Shown: piece after piece, positions 52,439 to 64,000 of the stretch | Position numbering within the stretch: position 1 is the first letter of the stretch | Layout: every line of letters begins with the position of its first letter | Source: Candidatus Helarchaeota archaeon | Lineage (GTDB): Archaea; Asgardarchaeota; Lokiarchaeia; Helarchaeales; RDOG01 | DNA length: 64,000 nucleotides | Assembly: GCA_019058315.1 (NCBI GenBank) | Contig: JAHPZH010000001.1 | Coordinates: 1,347,218-1,411,217 of the forward strand | Direction: 5' to 3' | Translations under genes and position numbers: made by a program | Notes under the pieces: model-generated | Told to the model about the DNA's origin: nothing | Databases searched by the model: none | Seen by the model: only the letters and a program-made list of their open reading frames with translations

Positions 52439-53644
52439 ATGCCTAAAGGTCTTGAAGTTAAAAGTTTTGATGATAAATGGACAGCTTTTAAAGAAAGAGG
52501 TAAAGAGCTAGAAAAAATTCAAGAATTATTTATTTCTTATTATGAGTGGTATCTTTGGGATTGTGCAGCAGATGATTTAACAGGAGATGGAAAAGCGGAA
52601 GTTGTTGGGGCGAGTGAAGATTCTACGTTAAGAGTTGTTGATGGTAATAACAAAGAATTATGGAGTAAAAATTTCCATAGGGCAGTATTTTTCTGTAAAA
52701 TAGCTGATTTAAATAAAGATGGTAATAAAGAAGTCATATGTGGAGGAGTTGAAGGTAAAGTCTTTGTTTTTGATAAGTCCGGAAATCCGAAATGGGAAAC
52801 AGATATTGGGAAATGGATATATGAAGCACAGATTGCGGATATAACAGGTGATGGAAAATTAGAAATTATAGCAGTTAGTAGAGATAAAACAATTAGAGTT
52901 ATTGATTGTGAAGGAAATGAGCTATGGCAACAAAAATTTAAGAGATATGTGAAACATTGTGGTTCTGGGGATATTAAAGGAGATGGAAAGCTTGAAGTTA
53001 TTGGTTCAGATGATGACAAATTTTTAAAAATCTTTGATAATAAAGGGAATGAGCTATGGGAATTCCAATTTACATTAATGCCTCCAGATGCAATGATTGA
53101 AGTAAGATCAGATGTTGTTTTTGAAACAGGTGATTTGACAAAAGATGGGAAAGAAGAAATCGTTGCAGGAAGTGATGATTCTTACCTACGCGTATTTGAT
53201 GGAAATGGAAAAGAATTATGGAATTATAAGTTCGAAGGTGCGGTTCATACCATATCAATTACAGATATTAATGGGGATGGAAATTTAGAAGTTATAGTTG
53301 GTGCTGAACCAGAATTGGATCCAGAGGGCAAAGCTACGGAAAAAACTAAGAATTTAATTGTTTTTGATAACACTGGAAAAATATTATGGGCTAAAAAATT
53401 CGATGGTGGAGTGTTTTGCTCAACAATCGGTGATGTTAATAAGGACGGAAAACCTGAATTAATTGTAGGAACTCAGACCTCTTTTATAGGCATCTTTGAT
53501 AAAGATGGAAATGATTTAGGACACTATAAATTTGATAATTACGTTAGAAAAATTGCTTTGGGAGATATTGACGGCGATGGACAATTAGAAATAATAGGAG
53601 CTTCGAGAGATCACACCATTCGTGCATTAAAATATAAAAAATAA
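52439..53644 (+). CDS. FG-GAP/VCBS-repeat beta-propeller protein
   Basis: About 8 repeats of D(L/I)xGDGKxE(I/V)(I/V)xxSxD...G.ELW; no signal peptide. Confidence 0.85.
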   Translation: MPKGLEVKSFDDKWTAFKERGKELEKIQELFISYYEWYLWDCAADDLTGDGKAEVVGASEDSTLRVVDGNNKELWSKNFHRAVFFCKIADLNKDGNKEVICGGVEGKVFVFDKSGNPKWETDIGKWIYEAQIADITGDGKLEIIAVSRDKTIRVIDCEGNELWQQKFKRYVKHCGSGDIKGDGKLEVIGSDDDKFLKIFDNKGNELWEFQFTLMPPDAMIEVRSDVVFETGDLTKDGKEEIVAGSDDSYLRVFDGNGKELWNYKFEGAVHTISITDINGDGNLEVIVGAEPELDPEGKATEKTKNLIVFDNTGKILWAKKFDGGVFCSTIGDVNKDGKPELIVGTQTSFIGIFDKDGNDLGHYKFDNYVRKIALGDIDGDGQLEIIGASRDHTIRALKYKK

Positions 53645-55194: not shown

Positions 55195-55407
55195 TAATTT
55201 TCCGAGAAATTTCTGAATATCAATTTAGTTAGAGAGTTTTTGACATCTATTAGAAGTTTTAGTATGGAATTATCAGTAGCATAGGAAAAAGCTATGCAAG
55301 GGTTATCGTATCAACATTTCGAAATTCAACTACAAGAAGGAAAATATATTACGGTTGTATTGATAACTTAAGGAATTCTAAATCAGTTAACAGTAACTGT
55401 TTTTTAA
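55195..55407 (+). pseudogene. Decayed longin-like domain fragment
   Basis: Frame from 55201: SEKFLNINLVREFLTSIRSFSMELSVA*EKAMQGLSYQHFEIQLQEGKYITVVLIT*GILNQLTVTVF*. Confidence 0.55.
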
Positions 55408-55544
55408 ATTATTCGAATTAGTAAAAAAAATAATCTATTTTCAAACATAAACAATAATATAGGTGAAGAGAGATAACTTTCATACTTTGATATCATTCAA
55501 ATTTTATTTCAAAATATTAAATTCCACTTTATGGAGTGCTAGAA

Positions 55545-58500
55545 TTGAAAAAAAGTAAAATTTTTAGTTTATCATTCATTATATCAATGATGCTTACTTT
55601 AATTCCTATAATTTATTCTCATTCAACAAGTAAATTACCTATTTGGAATAATTTATCTTTGAATATAGATGAAGAAATTGACTCTTCTGTCTATCTGGTT
55701 GATTGGCAACCCAATGGCACAATTGTATGTAATAAAACAAGTGATGCAAATTACCCAGAATTATGTTATGATGGAGAAGGTGGTGTCATAATTGTATGGC
55801 AAGAATCAAGAGGGGCAACAGATACTGATATTTATGCACAAAAATTGAATTCTACAGGACATATTCAATGGACTTTAGATGGGGTTGCAATATGTAATTA
55901 TAATGGGGATCAATGGTTTCCTATAGCTTGTACCGATGGAGAAGGCGGAGCAATTATCATATGGGAAGATAATCGAGGTACATTTAGTCGTATATATGCA
56001 CAACGAATAAATTCAACTGGACATTTATTATGGACAGCTAATGGAACTTCATTAATGACTGCGGGAGCAATAAGTTTTTATTCACCTAAAATCATATCTG
56101 ACGAAGAGGGCGGAGCTTTTATAACATTTCATAGTTCTGATATTCTTGCTCAAAGAATAAATTCTACTGGAGGTTTATTATGGGGTAATGGTATCACAGT
56201 GTGTTCAGCCAGTGGTAACCAGCAATATCCAACAATATGTTCAGATGAAGCTGGAGGAGTGATAATCACATGGCATGATTATAGAGGAGCTGAAAATGAT
56301 ATTTATGCCCAGAGAATTAATTCAAGTGGAGTTGAATATTGGACAACCAACGGTATTATTGTTTGTAATGCAACAAATTATCAATGGTTCCCTAAAATTG
56401 TGAGTGATGGAAATGGTGGGGCAATAATAACATGGGAAGACGATAGGGAAGGTTCCAGTAATAAAAATATATTTGCACAAAAAATTGATTCATTTGGAAA
56501 TAATGTTTGGCTTAATAATGGGACTCCAATATCTGAAGCAGTAGATGACCAAAGGAGTCCTGAAATATGCAGTGATATGAATGGTGGTGCAGTTATTGTT
56601 TGGAAAGATGACAGGGTAAGTTCAGATGGAGATATCTATGTTCAAAAAATCAATTCAGGAGGGGCAATTGAATGGTCAGCAAATGGATCTATAATATGTA
56701 ATTTACCAGAAGTTCAAGATCTTCAACAAATTTGTAGCGATGGTCAAGGAGGTGCAATAATTACATGGTACGATAGGCGAAGTACTGTAGATTATGATAT
56801 TTATACACAAATTATCGATTCTACTGGAACAATTCAACTCGTTGACAACGGAATAACAATCTGTAATGCGACGGGAACTCAACTTGTTCCAAAGATTGTT
56901 AGCGATATGGAAGGAGGAGCATTCTATACTTGGGCGGATGATAGAGATGGAGATTTTGATATTTATGCATACCATTTACAGAATTTAATAAACGAACCTC
57001 CTAACTCTAATAAACCTCATGATATAATTACTTTTAACTATTCAATAGAAACTATAGATTGGGTATTATGGGATGATTATAAAGAAGGCGAATTTCGTGT
57101 TTGGGTAAATGATAGTAATAATAATTATTATGTTTGGGAAAATTGGACTTCTTGGGTTAATAACACAGAAATTAATGTTGAAATTAATCGATCTGCTTAT
57201 GGTTTATATAATTACACTATCGAATTTTCAGATTCTTTGGGTTTAACTGCCACTGATGAAGTACTAGTTTCATTTATTGAACACAATATTATGATTTGGC
57301 AAGCAAACGGGACACCTATAAATAATCAGGTGTATGATCAGGAACTTGTCGTAGCTTGCTCTGATGGGCAAGGTGGAATTCTCATTGCTTGGCAAGATGA
57401 TCAGACGGGATCCAATGATGATAGAATTTATGCCCAACGAGTCAATTCTAGTGGAGCCCATCTTTGGGGGGCTAATGGAACTCCCATTTGTTCTTTTGCT
57501 GATAATCAGAGGGTTCCAGATATATGCAGTGACGGAAATGGAGGCGCAATTATCGCCTGGCAGGATTTAAGGGCAGGTAATTATGATATTTATGCTCAGC
57601 GAATTAATTCCAGTGGAATAATCCAGTGGACACCTTCAGGTATTCCGATTTGTAACTTGAATGGTGTTCAAAATCAAGTAAAAATTTGTAGCGATGGGGT
57701 TAATGGAGCTTTTATCACTTGGGAGGATTATAGAAGTGGAGGTCCTCCCACCTTTTATGATATTTATGCTCAACGTATTAATTCTAGCGGAGATGTTTAT
57801 TGGACAGCTAATGGAACTTTAATTTGTAATGAAATTAATTCACAAGGAGTAGTAAGAATTATTTACAATGGGGCTAAGAGTGCAATAATTGCTTGGGAAG
57901 ATCTAAGAGCTGGTTCAGGTAATTATGATATATATGCCCAAAAGATCAATTATACCGGAAATACCTTGTGGACTGCTAATGGAACTCCCATAGTTACGGC
58001 TACTGATGCGCAGCAATCTCCTCAATTATGTAACGATGGAAACGAAGGTGCTTTTATAGTTTGGCAAGATCTTAGAAGTGCAAGTTATCTTGATATTTAT
58101 GCCCAGCATATAAACTCAGCGGGAGTAGGGCAATGGACTAGTGATGGTATACCAATTTGCAATGCCAGCGACCATCAATATAATCCACAAATTACTATTG
58201 ACGATAATAATGGTTCAATCATAACATGGTATGATAGAAGATCCGGAAATTATGATATTTATTCTCAACGGATTAGTTTTCAAGGACAAACACTGTGGTC
58301 AGATAATGGAACTCTCATATGTAATTCAGAATATAGTCAATATGATCCTCAAATTTGTCCTGATGGTGCAAATGGTGCATATATTGCATGGTTTGATTAT
58401 AGAGGAGGATCTAATGCCGACATCTTTGCACAGCACGTAAGTTCGGAAGGAATTACCCTATTTGAGGATAATGGTACTGCAATATGCACCGAAGTACTTG

Positions 58501-61500
58501 ATCAGAATAACGTTAGGATTGTTAGTGATGGAATTGGTGGTGTAATTATGGTATGGGAAGATAATAGAAACGGAGGACTCACACCCCATGACATTTTTGC
58601 ACAAAGAGTATTACCTTATCCAGATGATCCCCCAACTTCAAACCACCCAGATGATATTACAACTTCTGTATTAGAAAAAATAACCATTAATTGGAAGCTA
58701 TACGATACATATTATGGCTCTCACTATACTGTTATAGCCAATGATACGAATAATGATTGGTATACGTGGATAGATTGGACGCCATGGGTTACTAATACCT
58801 CCATTAATATTCCAATTAATCGTACTGCTCTTGGAGTTTTTAATTATTCAATACTTTTTAATGATAGCCAAAATAATTATGGCTATGATTTTGTTATTGT
58901 CGAAGTTACGGCCACATCATTTCCATGGGGAAACAATGGCGTAGTAATCAGTAATGCAAGTAATTCGCAACTTACTCCTCAAATGTGTAGTGATATGGCT
59001 GGAGGAGCCATTATTACCTGGTCTGACGCTAGAGATGTAGGAACCCAAGAAGATATTTACGCACAGCACATTAATTCGGCTGGTCAGATATTGTGGGAGT
59101 TGAATGGGACATTGATATCTAATGCAACAAATGCTCAATCCGAGCCAGTTATTTGCAGTGATGGTCAACGAGGAGCTATTATAGCCTGGAGAGATGATAG
59201 GACAACAGTATATGATATTTATGCGCAACGAATAGATGCAAATGGAAATGTATTATGGGCAACGAATGGAATCCCAATATGTACTGCTGATAATCCTCAA
59301 TATAATCCACAAATTATTAACGATGGTATGGGTGGGGCTATTATAGCTTGGGATGATGATAGATCTTCAGATACTGACATATATGCTCAAAAAGTTGATG
59401 CAGACGGAAATATTCAGTGGACACCTAATGGGACTGCGATTTGCACGGCAGAATTTGGTCAAGGTGAGGTTACTCTTAGTAGCGATGGATCTGGAGGGGC
59501 GGTTATCGCTTGGGAAGATTTTAGAAGTGACAGTGATGAAGATATCTATGCACACAGAATTTCCGCTTCTGGAGAATTATTATGGGATAATAACGGTATG
59601 GTAATTTGTAATGAAACAGGAAATCAAATATATGTGGAAGTGGTTAGGTATGGTGAGGAAGATTTTATTTTTGTTTGGATGGATTCAAGAGACATCGCGA
59701 TTTCTGGCTATGATATATATGCACAACGAGTAGGACCGAATGGAAATTCCTTATGGCTATTAAATGGAACACCGGTCTGCACAGATCTGGATAATTCGCA
59801 ATTTCCTAAAATCGCTAGTGATGGGACAAATGGAGTTATTGTTACCTGGGATGATAATAGAGGCACAGACTATGATATATATGCTCAATTAATACTTGAT
59901 AACGGTAATACCGCGTGGGGTGGAAATGGGACGGTTATATGTGATGCTCCTAATAATCAAAGGTATCCTGAAATCTGCATTGATGGCTCTGGTGGTGCAA
60001 TAATTGCATGGTCTGATTATAGAAATAGTAATTATGATATTTATGCACAGGCTATTAATATTGATGCGGTAGAACAATGGATTCGCGATGGCATTCCAAT
60101 TTGTACTTCTGGCGATACACAAGAACAAATTGCAATTATATATGATGGAGTTGATCCAGCTATTATAGCTTGGAGCGATTATAGGGATGGGAGTTATGAT
60201 ATTTATGCTCAAACTACTAGAGCGAACGAACCTCCAACTTCAAATCATCCTGATGATATTAATACAATTGATATCGGACCTGAAACCATTGATTGGATAC
60301 TATATGATGCCATGACTCCAAGTCATTATAGAGTTTTAATAAATGACACCGTTAATGAATATACATGGGTTGACTGGACTCCATGGTCAAGTAATACAAA
60401 TCTTCATGTTCCAATCAATAGAACAATACATACTCCTTATAATGATACATGTCTTGGAATTTTTACTTATATAATACAATATAATGACAGTTTTAATGTA
60501 TGGGGTCAAAACGATTTAGTTAATGTTGCTGTTAAAAAAGGACCAATTCAATGGCAGAATAATGGAACGCCAATAAGCATAGATGTTCAAGATCAATTTT
60601 TAGTAGATCAATGTCTTGATGGAGAGGGGGGAGTAATATTTGTATGGATAGATCAAAGAGATATTGGTACAAGTGGGGAAGACATTTATGCCCAGCGTGT
60701 GAATTCTACAGGACATTATTTGTGGCAAGCAAATGGAACTCCCATCATAACACAGACTAATCCCCAATTTGGGGTTAGTGTTTGCAGCGATGGTTTTGGT
60801 GGGGCAATAATCGCTTGGAATGATCAACGCTATGGAACTGATGACATCTTTGCACAACATATAAATTCGTCTGGACATGTTCAATGGGCAGCCGATGGAG
60901 TTCCTATTTGTACTGAAGATTCTCAGTATCAGCATTTTCCTCAGATCTTTAACGATGGTGAGGGTGGAGCAATTATAATTTGGGAAGATGGAAGATCTTT
61001 CCCCAATACGGATATTTATGGACAACGAATTAATTCAAGTGGTAATATGCTTTGGGCACTAAATGGAACACCTATATCTAATGAAAACGGTGATCAGATA
61101 AATTTTGCAGCAAGCCGCACTGAAGGTGGTGTCGTTGTAGTTTGGGAAGATGGAAGAGCAGAAACTGCCATTTATGTAGATAAAATAGGTTTAGACGGTA
61201 CAAGCCAGTGGATATCGAACGGAACCAAAATTCATAACGCAACTTTGTCCACACAGCCAGAAATATGTTCCGATGGTGCAGGAGGTGCAATTGCTGTTTG
61301 GATTGATGATAGAAACCTAGGGAAAACTGATATGGATATTTTTACGCAAAAAATTGATTCTAGCGGAAATATACAGTGGATAGTTAATGGAACGGTTGTT
61401 AGCAACGCGTTATTGAATCCATCTCTACCTCAGATTGTTAGTGATGGAAACGGCGGTGCAATAATTGCCTGGAATGATGATAGAGACATGTTCACTACTG

Positions 61501-64000
61501 GAACGGATATCTATGCACAGAAAATAGATGCAACAGGTGCTATTTATTGGGGAAATGGAAGTCTGGGAGATAAAAATGGGTCGATAATTTGTAATGAATT
61601 GACTCCTCAGGGACAAGTTCAGCTTTCTAGCGATGGGGCAGGTGGAGCTTACATAGTTTGGCAAGATCCAAGATCAGGATCTAATATTTATGCACAAAGA
61701 ATAACTGCAACAGGGGAGTTTCATTATACATTGAATGGCACTCCGATTTGCAACGGATTAGGGTTTACTGACGATCCTAAAATTATGAGTGATGGATCTG
61801 GAGGGGCGTTCATTTCTTGGGTTAATGATAGGAATTCCTTAAATTGGGATATATATGCACAATATTTTAGTAATTTAGGAAATATACCTCCTTATTCAAA
61901 TCATCCAAATAATATCACAACTTCTGCGAGCGGAACGGAAACTATTGATTGGATAATCTACGATGACTTTGGTTCTGGTTATTATAAAGTTTTGGCTAAT
62001 GACACAACCGATAATTATTATATTTGGCAAGATTGGCAGCAATGGGAAAATGGTACAAGCCTTAATGTGCCAATTAATCGCACCGCACCAGGATATTATA
62101 ATTATACAATCGTATATTGGGATTCTGCTGGTCTATTAGAGGCTCCAGATACTGTTTTTGTGACCATTATTGATGCCTTGCCCACCTCCAATCATCCTGC
62201 AGATATAATAACTACTGCAAATGGGTCAGAGACTATTAATTGGACCCTTTATGATGATTTCGGAGGAGGTGCTTATCGTGTTTGGGCAAATGATTCCAAT
62301 GGTAATTATTACCTTTGGTTTCCTACTTGGACTGGATGGGGTAATGCCTCGACACTTTTTATACCAATTAATCGCTCCACTCCAGGAGTTTTTAACTATA
62401 CAATCGAATATTATGATTATGATGCTCTTTACGGTATTCCAGATACTGTTATCGTTACAATACAAAATGCAGTACCCACCTCAAATAACCCATGGGATTT
62501 AGATATTCCTATATCTGGATCACAAACTATTGATTGGATTCTTTATGATGATTTTGGACCTGGACAATATCGTGTATGGGCTAACGATACCAATGATAAT
62601 TATTATGTTTGGCAAGATTGGCAGCCATGGGCTAATAATACAAATCTTGCAGTCCCAATTAATCGTAGCGCTCCAGGAATTTTTAATTATACAATCGAAT
62701 ATTATGATAATTATACTCTTTATGGTTCTCCGGATACTATTATAATTGAATTAAACGCCATTCCGTCAATAAATCAACCACTTGATATTTCAACTTTTGC
62801 AAATGGTTCTGAAGTTATTAATTGGACTATTTATGATGATGATGCGTTGGGAAGTTATTGGGTTTGGGTTAATGATACTAGTGATAATTATTATATCTGG
62901 GAAAGTTTTCAATGGTCAAATAATACCCCACTTGATGTACCAATTAATCGGACTGCTCCAGGAATTTATAACTATACAATTGAGTATAGCGATGGTTCAC
63001 AATATGGCATTCCAGATACTGTAATAGTTATAATTGGAGATTTCGTTCCCACTTCAAATCACCCAGGAGACTTTCCAACATTTGTTGGGGGATCTGAAAA
63101 TATCACTTGGTACTTATACGATGATTATGGTCCAGGGCAATATAGAGTCTGGCTTAATGATACTAATGATGATTATTATGTTTGGCGAGATTGGACACCT
63201 TGGATAAATAATACTAATTTGAATATTCCAATAAATCGCACTGCTCCAGGCATTTTCAACTATACAATAGAATTTAATGATACATATGGACAAATGGGTA
63301 TTATAGACACAGTTTTTGTAATAGTTATTAATCAATTACCAACTTCAAATTCTCCAGCTGATTTTCCAACTTTTAATGATGGATTAGAAAATATTACTTG
63401 GTTTCTATATGATGATTATGGTCCTGGTCATTATAGAGTCTGGGTTAACGATACTAATGATAATTATTATGTCTGGCAAGATTGGACAACATGGACAAAT
63501 AATTCCAACTTGAATATTCCAGTAAATCGCACTACTCCAGGGATTTTTAATTACACAATAGAATACAATGACACGTATGGACTAGTAGGACTTGTTGATT
63601 CGGTCTTAGTTACAGTTATCAATCGGATACCCACTTCAAATACTCCAAGCGATTTTTTTACTTTTGCTGGAGGTTCTGAAAATGTTAATTGGACACTTTA
63701 TGATGATTATGGTCCTGGATTTTATCGAGTCTGGGTTAATGATACCTCAGATAATTATTACGTTTGGGTGGACTGGACGTCTTGGTTTAATAATACTAAC
63801 TTGAATGTTCCAGTAAATCGCACTGCTCCAGGAGTTTATAATTATACAATTGAATTTGATGATGAGTATAATAGTTTGGGAATACCAGATACTGTTATGG
63901 TCACAATCATAAACCAGATGCCTACTTCAAACCAACCTGCTAATATTATAACTTATGCTAATGAAACTAATAATATTACTTGGTTTTTATATGATGATTT
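55545..64000 (+). CDS. Giant secreted/surface glycoprotein (>2,800 aa, partial): 4 x [8-repeat beta-propeller + Ig-like domain], then tandem Ig-like stalk (not in ORF track)
   Basis: GGAG then TTG 55545; signal-like KKSKIFSLSFIISMMLTLIP. One frame holds at every point checked up to the window end. 32 repeats of WxxNGxxIC...P.I.SDG.GGAII.W.D.R...DIYAQRI and at least 11 repeats of PTSNHP...W.LYDD.G.G.YRVW.NDT...INRT.PG..NYTIE. Confidence 0.9.
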   Translation, partial: MKKSKIFSLSFIISMMLTLIPIIYSHSTSKLPIWNNLSLNIDEEIDSSVYLVDWQPNGTIVCNKTSDANYPELCYDGEGGVIIVWQESRGATDTDIYAQKLNSTGHIQWTLDGVAICNYNGDQWFPIACTDGEGGAIIIWEDNRGTFSRIYAQRINSTGHLLWTANGTSLMTAGAISFYSPKIISDEEGGAFITFHSSDILAQRINSTGGLLWGNGITVCSASGNQQYPTICSDEAGGVIITWHDYRGAENDIYAQRINSSGVEYWTTNGIIVCNATNYQWFPKIVSDGNGGAIITWEDDREGSSNKNIFAQKIDSFGNNVWLNNGTPISEAVDDQRSPEICSDMNGGAVIVWKDDRVSSDGDIYVQKINSGGAIEWSANGSIICNLPEVQDLQQICSDGQGGAIITWYDRRSTVDYDIYTQIIDSTGTIQLVDNGITICNATGTQLVPKIVSDMEGGAFYTWADDRDGDFDIYAYHLQNLINEPPNSNKPHDIITFNYSIETIDWVLWDDYKEGEFRVWVNDSNNNYYVWENWTSWVNNTEINVEINRSAYGLYNYTIEFSDSLGLTATDEVLVSFIEHNIMIWQANGTPINNQVYDQELVVACSDGQGGILIAWQDDQTGSNDDRIYAQRVNSSGAHLWGANGTPICSFADNQRVPDICSDGNGGAIIAWQDLRAGNYDIYAQRINSSGIIQWTPSGIPICNLNGVQNQVKICSDGVNGAFITWEDYRSGGPPTFYDIYAQRINSSGDVYWTANGTLICNEINSQGVVRIIYNGAKSAIIAWEDLRAGSGNYDIYAQKINYTGNTLWTANGTPIVTATDAQQSPQLCNDGNEGAFIVWQDLRSASYLDIYAQHINSAGVGQWTSDGIPICNASDHQYNPQITIDDNNGSIITWYDRRSGNYDIYSQRISFQGQTLWSDNGTLICNSEYSQYDPQICPDGANGAYIAWFDYRGGSNADIFAQHVSSEGITLFEDNGTAICTEVLDQNNVRIVSDGIGGVIMVWEDNRNGGLTPHDIFAQRVLPYPDDPPTSNHPDDITTSVLEKITINWKLYDTYYGSHYTVIANDTNNDWYTWIDWTPWVTNTSINIPINRTALGVFNYSILFNDSQNNYGYDFVIVEVTATSFPWGNNGVVISNASNSQLTPQMCSDMAGGAIITWSDARDVGTQEDIYAQHINSAGQILWELNGTLISNATNAQSEPVICSDGQRGAIIAWRDDRTTVYDIYAQRIDANGNVLWATNGIPICTADNPQYNPQIINDGMGGAIIAWDDDRSSDTDIYAQKVDADGNIQWTPNGTAICTAEFGQGEVTLSSDGSGGAVIAWEDFRSDSDEDIYAHRISASGELLWDNNGMVICNETGNQIYVEVVRYGEEDFIFVWMDSRDIAISGYDIYAQRVGPNGNSLWLLNGTPVCTDLDNSQFPKIASDGTNGVIVTWDDNRGTDYDIYAQLILDNGNTAWGGNGTVICDAPNNQRYPEICIDGSGGAIIAWSDYRNSNYDIYAQAINIDAVEQWIRDGIPICTSGDTQEQIAIIYDGVDPAIIAWSDYRDGSYDIYAQTTRANEPPTSNHPDDINTIDIGPETIDWILYDAMTPSHYRVLINDTVNEYTWVDWTPWSSNTNLHVPINRTIHTPYNDTCLGIFTYIIQYNDSFNVWGQNDLVNVAVKKGPIQWQNNGTPISIDVQDQFLVDQCLDGEGGVIFVWIDQRDIGTSGEDIYAQRVNSTGHYLWQANGTPIITQTNPQFGVSVCSDGFGGAIIAWNDQRYGTDDIFAQHINSSGHVQWAADGVPICTEDSQYQHFPQIFNDGEGGAIIIWEDGRSFPNTDIYGQRINSSGNMLWALNGTPISNENGDQINFAASRTEGGVVVVWEDGRAETAIYVDKIGLDGTSQWISNGTKIHNATLSTQPEICSDGAGGAIAVWIDDRNLGKTDMDIFTQKIDSSGNIQWIVNGTVVSNALLNPSLPQIVSDGNGGAIIAWNDDRDMFTTGTDIYAQKIDATGAIYWGNGSLGDKNGSIICNELTPQGQVQLSSDGAGGAYIVWQDPRSGSNIYAQRITATGEFHYTLNGTPICNGLGFTDDPKIMSDGSGGAFISWVNDRNSLNWDIYAQYFSNLGNIPPYSNHPNNITTSASGTETIDWIIYDDFGSGYYKVLANDTTDNYYIWQDWQQWENGTSLNVPINRTAPGYYNYTIVYWDSAGLLEAPDTVFVTIIDALPTSNHPADIITTANGSETINWTLYDDFGGGAYRVWANDSNGNYYLWFPTWTGWGNASTLFIPINRSTPGVFNYTIEYYDYDALYGIPDTVIVTIQNAVPTSNNPWDLDIPISGSQTIDWILYDDFGPGQYRVWANDTNDNYYVWQDWQPWANNTNLAVPINRSAPGIFNYTIEYYDNYTLYGSPDTIIIELNAIPSINQPLDISTFANGSEVINWTIYDDDALGSYWVWVNDTSDNYYIWESFQWSNNTPLDVPINRTAPGIYNYTIEYSDGSQYGIPDTVIVIIGDFVPTSNHPGDFPTFVGGSENITWYLYDDYGPGQYRVWLNDTNDDYYVWRDWTPWINNTNLNIPINRTAPGIFNYTIEFNDTYGQMGIIDTVFVIVINQLPTSNSPADFPTFNDGLENITWFLYDDYGPGHYRVWVNDTNDNYYVWQDWTTWTNNSNLNIPVNRTTPGIFNYTIEYNDTYGLVGLVDSVLVTVINRIPTSNTPSDFFTFAGGSENVNWTLYDDYGPGFYRVWVNDTSDNYYVWVDWTSWFNNTNLNVPVNRTAPGVYNYTIEFDDEYNSLGIPDTVMVTIINQMPTSNQPANIITYANETNNITWFLYDD
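61885..64000 (+). repeat. Tandem ~290-bp coding repeats (Ig-like stalk units)
   Basis: Recurring TATGATGATTATGGTCC, TATAGAGTCTGG, GATAATTATTATGT and AATCGCACTGCTCCAGG at ~290-bp period. Confidence 0.85.

Follow-up and report, generated by a model that had tools for sequence, protein, structure and literature searches.

The window analysed here is a whole stretch of 64,000 nucleotides of DNA from a Candidatus Helarchaeota archaeon (GenBank assembly GCA_019058315.1, contig JAHPZH010000001.1, G000:C3:1347218-1411217), whose right-hand end is occupied by a giant gene that appears to encode a surface receptor or adhesin with four extracellular beta-propellers, a long stalk, and a trafficking-type cytoplasmic tail. 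A scan for open reading frames (ORFs) and translation both give a continuous plus-strand frame from window position 55536 or 55545 to 63998, which contains no stop and runs past the window end; the first-pass annotation, made from the letters of the window, had described such an unbroken frame, and it is indeed open to the last base. Both GTG 55536 and TTG 55545 are in frame. TTG is the likelier start because GGAG lies 8 nt upstream of it and its product opens with KKSK and a hydrophobic core. The first codons (55545..55622, +), which continue to SHS, encode a probable Sec-type signal peptide, in line with the signal-like N-terminus suspected earlier. Translated from the GTG, the window part of the gene yields 2,821 amino acids (aa; P0001). 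With the continuation past the window, the minimal protein is 3,776 aa from GTG or 3,773 aa from TTG, and these figures are a lower bound as a scaffold gap interrupts the gene.

The signal peptide is followed by four propellers, each followed in turn by one W-rich domain. A profile hidden Markov model (HMM) built from the aligned propeller family finds four full-length envelopes in P0001, all on the plus strand: propeller 1 at 55689..57002 (aa 52-489), propeller 2 at 57294..58631 (aa 583-1033), propeller 3 at 58923..60233 (aa 1126-1567), and propeller 4 at 60549..61889 (aa 1668-2119). Propeller 1 consists of 8 blades of ~55 aa built on an IYAQ repeat. The I-[YF]-A-Q motif is present in 8 copies in each of the 4 blocks with a spacing of 50-59 aa, one copy of block 2 reading IYSQR. 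The W-rich domain after every propeller block measures 97-105 aa and starts with P-T-S-N-x-P. The first three, also on the plus strand, are S1 (57003..57293), an Ig-like beta-sandwich of 7 strands at model residues 453-536; S2 (58632..58922), the Ig-like spacer after block 2; and S3 (60234..60548), an Ig-like domain of 105 aa which carries an insertion. Four blocks of 8 repeats of ~55 aa, with one W-rich spacer of ~97 aa per block, had been proposed at first pass; motif count and HMM envelopes agree with this layout, and its coordinates were right to within a few tens of bases. The accompanying claim that many repeats carry two cysteines stands only in part, since both Cys (i/i+12, IC...ICSD) occur in 8 of the 32 blades, whereas most of the others retain one.

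Structure prediction with AlphaFold2 (AF2) covered the tail and, among the propeller units, unit 1 alone. The alignment behind the unit 1 model (A2) combined the four internal units with 42 homologous segments, and the model (pLDDT 91.6, pTM 0.85) contains 32 strands arranged as eight groups of four, then a seven-strand sandwich. This supports the prediction of an 8-bladed propeller plus an Ig-like domain, and with propeller proteins as top Foldseek matches it answers the structural check that had been suggested for a block and its spacer. Units 2-4 are 42-47% identical to unit 1 over the full length. The four units are about as distant from each other as from other paralogues, and in a maximum-likelihood tree of 47 propeller units, which is star-like and gives no duplication order, they form no supported clade: u1 and u4 pair with an SH-aLRT of 86, and u2 and u3 fall beside other proteins with weak support.

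Among solved structures, Foldseek matched unit 1 to CylK, to Photorhabdus and Chromobacterium lectins, to sialidases, to propellers of glycoside hydrolase (GH) families, and to designed "Cake" propellers. The presence of an enzyme (CylK), sialidases, and GH-family propellers among the best matches raises the idea that the propellers act as enzymes (glycosidase, lyase, or alkylating-enzyme-like) and that the protein is a cell-bound array for polymer degradation, an idea also favored by bacterial relatives which are often secreted by the type IX secretion system (T9SS) or bear dockerin, like many degradative enzymes. However, the matches are generic (TM-score by query <=0.49, identity 9-16%) and include lectins and designed propellers alongside the enzymes, no enzyme family was returned by Pfam or NCBIfam, and the conserved positions are repeated in each blade, unlike those of a single active site. 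A catalytic function is thus considered very unlikely.

The propeller belongs to a very large family. It comprises 27,311 cluster representatives with a match at E <= 1e-3, of which 6,956 also match at E <= 1e-30, mostly bacterial surface proteins with archaeal members too; the bacterial relatives terminate with T9SS sorting, dockerin, or FlgD-Ig domains. The ESM Atlas entries nearest in shape to unit 1 are "hypothetical" proteins of bacteria with T9SS, FlgD-Ig, or dockerin ends (TM-score 0.75-0.79 over 437-480 residues). The NCBIfam model TIGR04275 (beta_prop_Msarc) matches 43 of 46 aligned propeller relatives, and the blade repeat of beta_prop_Msarc proteins is homologous to that of the giant gene, but P0001 scores 58.3 bits (E 4.5e-16; 63.6 bits for aa 1-1100) and does not reach the curated membership cut-off of 85 bits. 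In Pfam, P0001 has no match for the propeller, including the FG-GAP repeats of the integrin alpha-like 7-bladed type, and the W-rich domain gives a weak hGDE_N beta-sandwich signal. The giant gene draws attention to a propeller plus Ig unit that has over 27,000 cluster representatives and for which Pfam holds no model covering the propeller repeat, a search of the PDB sequences with the unit-alignment profile gave no match to the propeller family, and no study of function was found. By sequence, the tandem layout of propellers and Ig-like domains is not unique to this protein; tandem propellers with ~90-aa spacers are also seen in P0068 (4,286 aa), P0077, and P0191 (5,506 aa). A further relative, P0069 (JGI metagenome, 1,977 aa), has two IYAQ propellers, five W-rich Ig domains, one transmembrane helix, and a tail of ~520 aa annotated as Pfam TIR_2, and from this the ectodomain seems combinable with different cytoplasmic modules.

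After propeller 4, the W-rich domain runs on as a tandem array, a feature which goes beyond the first-pass description. S4, T1-T6, and the first 26 aa of T7 form the stalk within the window (61890..63998, +), with a period of 95-98 aa and ~5-6 N-x-S/T sequons each, until the gap cuts it. In all, at least 10 W-rich domains follow propeller 4 (S4, T1-T9), and the whole gene encodes at least 13 W-rich Ig-like (W-Ig) domains. The identity between them climbs toward the gap, from 40-56% for S1-S4 to 67-74% for T4-T6 and 82% for T7/T8, and this rise points to an ongoing homogenization of the stalk repeats. As to base composition, G+C is 0.36-0.38 at window positions 56000-62000 versus ~0.25-0.35 in the rest of the window, with a steadily positive GC skew (~0.2); both probably reflect the Gly/Asp/Trp-rich composition of the giant protein.

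The last base of the window adjoins a 100-N scaffold gap (C3:1411218-1411317). An identical sequence of 55 nt flanks the gap on both sides and a third copy lies 291 bp downstream; these are the 3 occurrences of the 55-mer in the whole genome, all within the giant gene, and its length is a typical assembler k-mer size. In addition, of the 120 nt that precede the gap, 114 agree with the next repeat junction (T7/T8). The identical flanks and this junction match indicate that the assembler broke inside the tandem repeat and that the join is locally unique, and the number of stalk repeats is given as a minimum because the gap sits inside a 97-aa repeat with identical 55-mer flanks. Past the gap, the same frame and domain type go on for another 972 codons until the stop at C3:1414238. 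This continuation (L009:9321-12239, +; extrapolated window positions 64103-67021) comprises what remains of T7, followed by T8 and T9, a juxtamembrane domain, a transmembrane helix, and the tail, and its 972-aa product (L009:9321-12236) is referred to as P0002.

Since the two parts are linked only through a 100-N gap within a repeat family of 19 ORFs, an ectodomain contig might have been joined to the transmembrane helix and tail of a paralogue, or the gene might be decaying, as a decayed paralogue relic lies directly upstream. Such an artefact or pseudogene is nevertheless extremely improbable. The overlap of 55 nt shows no mismatch, keeps the frame, and is found at this locus alone, the pre-gap sequence fits the T7/T8 junction as described, ~11.4 kb of frame are free of stops on both sides of the gap, and the order of W-Ig, juxtamembrane domain, transmembrane helix, and tail recurs in independent assemblies (P0004, from an ENA assembly; P0006; P0007). 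The relic itself (55201..55395, +), situated 150-340 bp upstream of the giant-gene start, has 59% identity over 65 aa (tblastn) to the giant gene's own C-terminal domain and contains in-frame stops; it is probably the remnant of the 3′ end of a paralogue, left by a past rearrangement.

The stalk leads into a beta-rich juxtamembrane domain of ~140 aa (P0002 aa 278-417, +) and a short acidic/Pro linker. An ESM Atlas feature search with this domain returned only archaeal "hypothetical" clusters with scores <=0.92. One transmembrane helix follows (P0002 aa 435-456 = L009:10623-10688, +), then the positive-inside sequence RRKK and a Pro/Lys linker; the remaining 516 aa (P0002 aa 457-972, +) are predicted to be cytoplasmic by topology. 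The first-pass annotation had advised extending the contig in search of a transmembrane helix and a cytosolic longin domain, and the extension yields both, a single helix with RRKK and, at the end of the tail, a longin fold. The dense N-x-S/T sequons noted at the same time are borne out: the 3,256-aa ectodomain carries 126, compared with 47 ± 6 in composition-preserving shuffles, and 2 are found in the 516 residues after the helix. An N-terminal signal peptide, RRKK after the helix, and sequons outside fit a type-I membrane topology, as far as this can be read from the sequence. The GG_III-CTERM model scores 10.6 bits versus a cut-off of 22, and the helix is followed by 516 folded residues, so that no end signal of the PGF-CTERM/GG-III-CTERM type is present.

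The extreme sequon density and the long mucin-like Ig stalk would also suit a passive role in the envelope or glycocalyx, in which the protein is an abundant glycan-coated spacer of a non-crystalline Asgard coat, and the tail merely anchors or sorts it (to the cytoskeleton or into protrusions). The source genome contains 31 propeller ORFs and 19 W-Ig ORFs, as coat components would show; one other ORF has two propellers, and four are found only in the giant gene. The homogenizing stalk repeats, with T7 and T8 sharing the identical 55-mer, point in the same direction. Conversely, no S-layer family was matched in Pfam and NCBIfam scans of the giant protein, and four heads of 42-47% identity point to differing specificities and not to a repeated lattice unit. 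The nature of the tail bears on the same question.

The tail was modelled from an alignment of 43 homologues (A1), with model residue 1 at P0002 aa 465 and a pLDDT of 86. Four domains are predicted, all on the plus strand: an Ig sandwich (P0002 aa 474-579, model 10-115), an alpha/beta platform (aa 580-695, model 114-231), a Vps28-C-like helical bundle (aa 696-842, model 232-378), and a C-terminal longin domain (aa 843-972, model 379-508). Foldseek places the COPI gamma/beta and AP2 alpha/beta2 appendages on top (E 1e-9 to 1e-6, ~230 columns), and VIA-align gives a Z of 13.7 for the alpha-adaptin appendage (201 aligned), 13.0 for the AP-4 beta platform (root-mean-square deviation, rmsd, 2.7), and 13.1 for a further appendage match. 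The modelled Ig sandwich and platform are accordingly assigned as an appendage of the adaptin/COPI type. From Ig sandwich to helices, the tail can also be aligned with BBS9, BBS2, and BBS7 (255-409 columns), and Pfam GAE_BBS1 has weak matches in 17 of 44 tail homologues. The model of the C-terminal domain is assigned to the longin fold: CPLANE, Sec22, and VAMP7 match with Z 12.5-13.8, a wider longin set including AP sigma/mu and TRAPP with Z 11-13.8 (rmsd 2.5-3.5), and MglB and Roadblock slightly lower, with Z 10.9-11.2. The helical bundle aligns (BLASTP 4e-29) with a stretch of the Lokiarchaeal PCI protein P0059, a region which passes Pfam VPS28 with 25.2 bits at a cut-off of 24.5; by fold, it matches as a generic helical bundle (FAT domain, Z 12.3). 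The contact sites of eukaryotic Vps28-C fall within Vps36-specific inserts. Alignment A1 also shows three invariant or nearly invariant cysteines (P0002 aa ~546, 578, 725), which is unusual for a cytosolic domain; a metal or redox site is possible. Two of them belong to the Ig sandwich, in the motifs LTPLTCGK and QIKCPLV, and the third to the helical bundle.

The tail matches 64 proteins with lengths of 534-1,701 aa. All come from Helarchaeota, Lokiarchaeota, Hodarchaeota, or unnamed metagenomes, and most of them have an HTH, TPR, PCI, or Zn-ribbon N-terminus. Complete copies of the module turned up only in the window's own order, with 1-6 per genome and 13 in the source genome; the longin part by itself occurs more widely, in 134 of the 151 genomes sampled across the phylum. 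Tails of the receptor type form a similarity group of their own at 58-71% identity, as compared to 50-56% or less to HTH forms. Receptor-type members are P0005, P0008, and P0319 from the source genome and, from other metagenome-assembled genomes (MAGs), P0006 (NCBI Helarchaeota) and P0007 (JGI); their tails are the most similar ones, at 57-71% identity. P0004 has a tail 94% identical to that of the giant gene; over its first 260 residues (juxtamembrane domain, transmembrane helix, and start of the tail) the identity is 64% overall, with the differences mostly extracellular, as one expects when the inner module of a surface protein is constrained. A tail of 516 aa so conserved, and common to soluble HTH-, TPR-, and PCI-fused proteins, exceeds the needs of an anchor. 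With this evidence added to that on the ectodomain, the passive coat keeps some plausibility, but it is an unlikely explanation.

No protein longer than 1,701 aa with the giant-gene tail was found outside the source genome, which contains one such paralogue, and no comparable four-head protein with a trafficking-type tail was found outside it among 5.8 billion proteins, although orthologues could be missed because giant repeat genes fragment in MAG assemblies. A pattern-based scan of genome contigs gave 5 loci, all from Helarchaeota or uncultured archaea. Single-propeller receptors with the giant-gene tail are present, unremarked, in public MAGs. In two cases, stand-alone genes combining HTH, appendage, Vps28C-like, and longin domains lie close to genes for giant surface proteins, at 12 bp and 103 bp: one pair is G000:C3:1059598-1063944 (+) and C3:1063956-1066181 (-), and the other is C11:252577-263622 (-) and C11:263725-266010 (-), the surface-protein neighbors being a 1,449-aa propeller receptor and an ORF of ~11 kb. 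Within 6 kb, 3 of 9 stand-alone tail-module genes have a propeller or W-Ig ORF nearby, versus 11.5% of the genome, a difference which is not significant (binomial p ~0.08).

In the neighborhood, the giant gene is flanked by genes for an FG-GAP propeller protein, an SDR, an alpha/beta hydrolase, and an aminotransferase. The FG-GAP neighbor (window 52439-53644, +; 401 aa) lacks an evident signal peptide, has Pfam matches including BBS2_Mid, Itfg2, and BBS7 beta-propeller, and is unrelated by sequence to the IYAQ propellers. A ubiquitin-ESCRT locus of the canonical Asgard type is located on another contig (L018 = G000:C10:98000-115999). It encodes an E1 (ThiF) whose C-terminal ubiquitin-family match is weak and sub-threshold, an E2, UEV/Vps23-like and Vps25-like proteins, Vps4, and three Snf7-type ESCRT-III proteins, with a HerA-like ATPase interleaved; the source genome, with roughly 5,000 proteins, also has two EAP30-type genes. 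Its Vps22/36-like proteins are encoded at C3:249813-250181 and C5:1094888-1095250, and the Vps25-like one at C10:106736-107032.

An architecture with propellers and an Ig stalk outside and a trafficking-type module inside looks like a surface receptor joined directly to trafficking parts. The interpretation which is favored, with rather more confidence than doubt, is that the giant gene encodes a type-I, heavily N-glycosylatable receptor or adhesin of the plasma membrane whose heads bind putative extracellular ligands and whose tail is coupled to the ESCRT-II/small-GTPase machinery, both binding and coupling being deduced from the families named above. Four anciently diverged propeller heads would be held tens of nanometres from the membrane on the Ig stalk, where they may bind glycans, polymers, or partner-cell surfaces. 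The tail would place three sites under the receptor, namely, the appendage as a putative interaction hub, the Vps28-C-like bundle as an ESCRT-II-facing site, and the longin domain as a small-GTPase-facing site. Occupancy or clustering of the heads could in this way be linked to remodelling of the membrane, to sorting, or to the budding of vesicles, with the net effect of a cargo covalently joined with its own adaptor.

Three observations weigh against this interpretation. Pfam VPS28 does not match the giant-gene tail directly, and the link to ESCRT-II rests for this reason on transitive homology and a generic four-helix fold. The flanking genes suggest no operon or pathway. The residues conserved in the propellers (W, G, Q, D, GG, W-D-R, DIYAQR) come back blade after blade and have the look of structural positions.

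The roles and membrane targets of the many eukaryote-like trafficking parts of Asgard archaea are obscure, and the giant protein ties one such module covalently to a huge, putatively ligand-binding extracellular array. A bolder reading, regarded as quite unlikely, takes the gene as a natural "Rosetta-stone" fusion, whereby the Asgard adaptin-ear/Vps28-C/longin modules would act at the plasma membrane beneath surface receptors, and the four heads would sense partner cells or polymers in a multivalent manner. If this were true, prokaryotic receptor-coupled trafficking, such as ligand-triggered ESCRT/GTPase budding, protrusions, or receptor turnover, would predate eukaryotic adaptor coats. Irrespective of this, the receptor or adhesin proposed here gives experiments something definite to work on: the tail could act as bait for ESCRT-II/III, small GTPases, and roadblock/longin partners and the heads could enter ligand screens, and the size of the protein is such that it may be visible in cryo-tomograms. 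The novelty lies in the scale and combination, that is, four heads and at least 13 Ig domains on a trafficking-type tail; both the tail module and the propeller family are of kinds already known.

Several known systems share one or another part of this plan. Asgard proteins combining Vps28-C, an adaptin appendage, and a longin domain are described by Makarova et al. 2024 (PMC11188069), where ESCRT-II association, GTPase activation, and an ESCRT-0-like role were proposed for the module. By fold and sequence homology, these proteins contain the same three-part module as the giant-gene tail; here, in contrast, the module is the tail of a type-I protein that measures at least 3,776 aa and bears its four propellers outside the cell, whereas the passages of that paper's text on the module name TPR, Ig-like, and HTH/PCI partners and no propeller receptor of such kind. 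The receptor-type proteins P0005-P0008 and P0319 share the plan of the giant gene (signal peptide, propeller and/or W-Ig, juxtamembrane domain, transmembrane helix, and tail) but have 0-1 propeller and 1,252-2,607 aa, as opposed to the four propellers and at least 13 W-Ig domains of the giant gene. The bacterial T9SS/FlgD-Ig proteins have the same propeller plus Ig shape without a transmembrane helix and trafficking-type tail. BBS2, BBS7, and BBS9, together with the large subunits of AP2 and COPI, display a GAE-type Ig sandwich, a platform, and a helical region like those of the giant-gene tail. In the BBSome, adaptors, and COPI, however, propeller or solenoid and appendage alike are cytosolic components of coat complexes, whereas the propellers of the giant protein lie outside the cell and come from an unrelated repeat family.

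Finally, LRP5/6, as well as LRP4, LRP2, and Sevenless, resemble the giant protein in their type-I layout, with four pairs of a propeller and a small domain, further repeats, one transmembrane helix, and an adaptor-binding tail. The first-pass annotation had called the resemblance to LRP architectural only, and this judgment holds. Ldl_recept_b and EGF have no Pfam match at E <= 1 in P0001, and LRP2 and LRP4 are among the Foldseek matches to unit 1 (E ~5e-9) with TM-scores of 0.20-0.22. The LRP units are 6-bladed YWTD propellers paired with EGF domains, whereas those of the giant protein are 8-bladed IYAQ propellers paired with an Ig-like sandwich; the likeness is a convergent layout, an analogy and not a homology.

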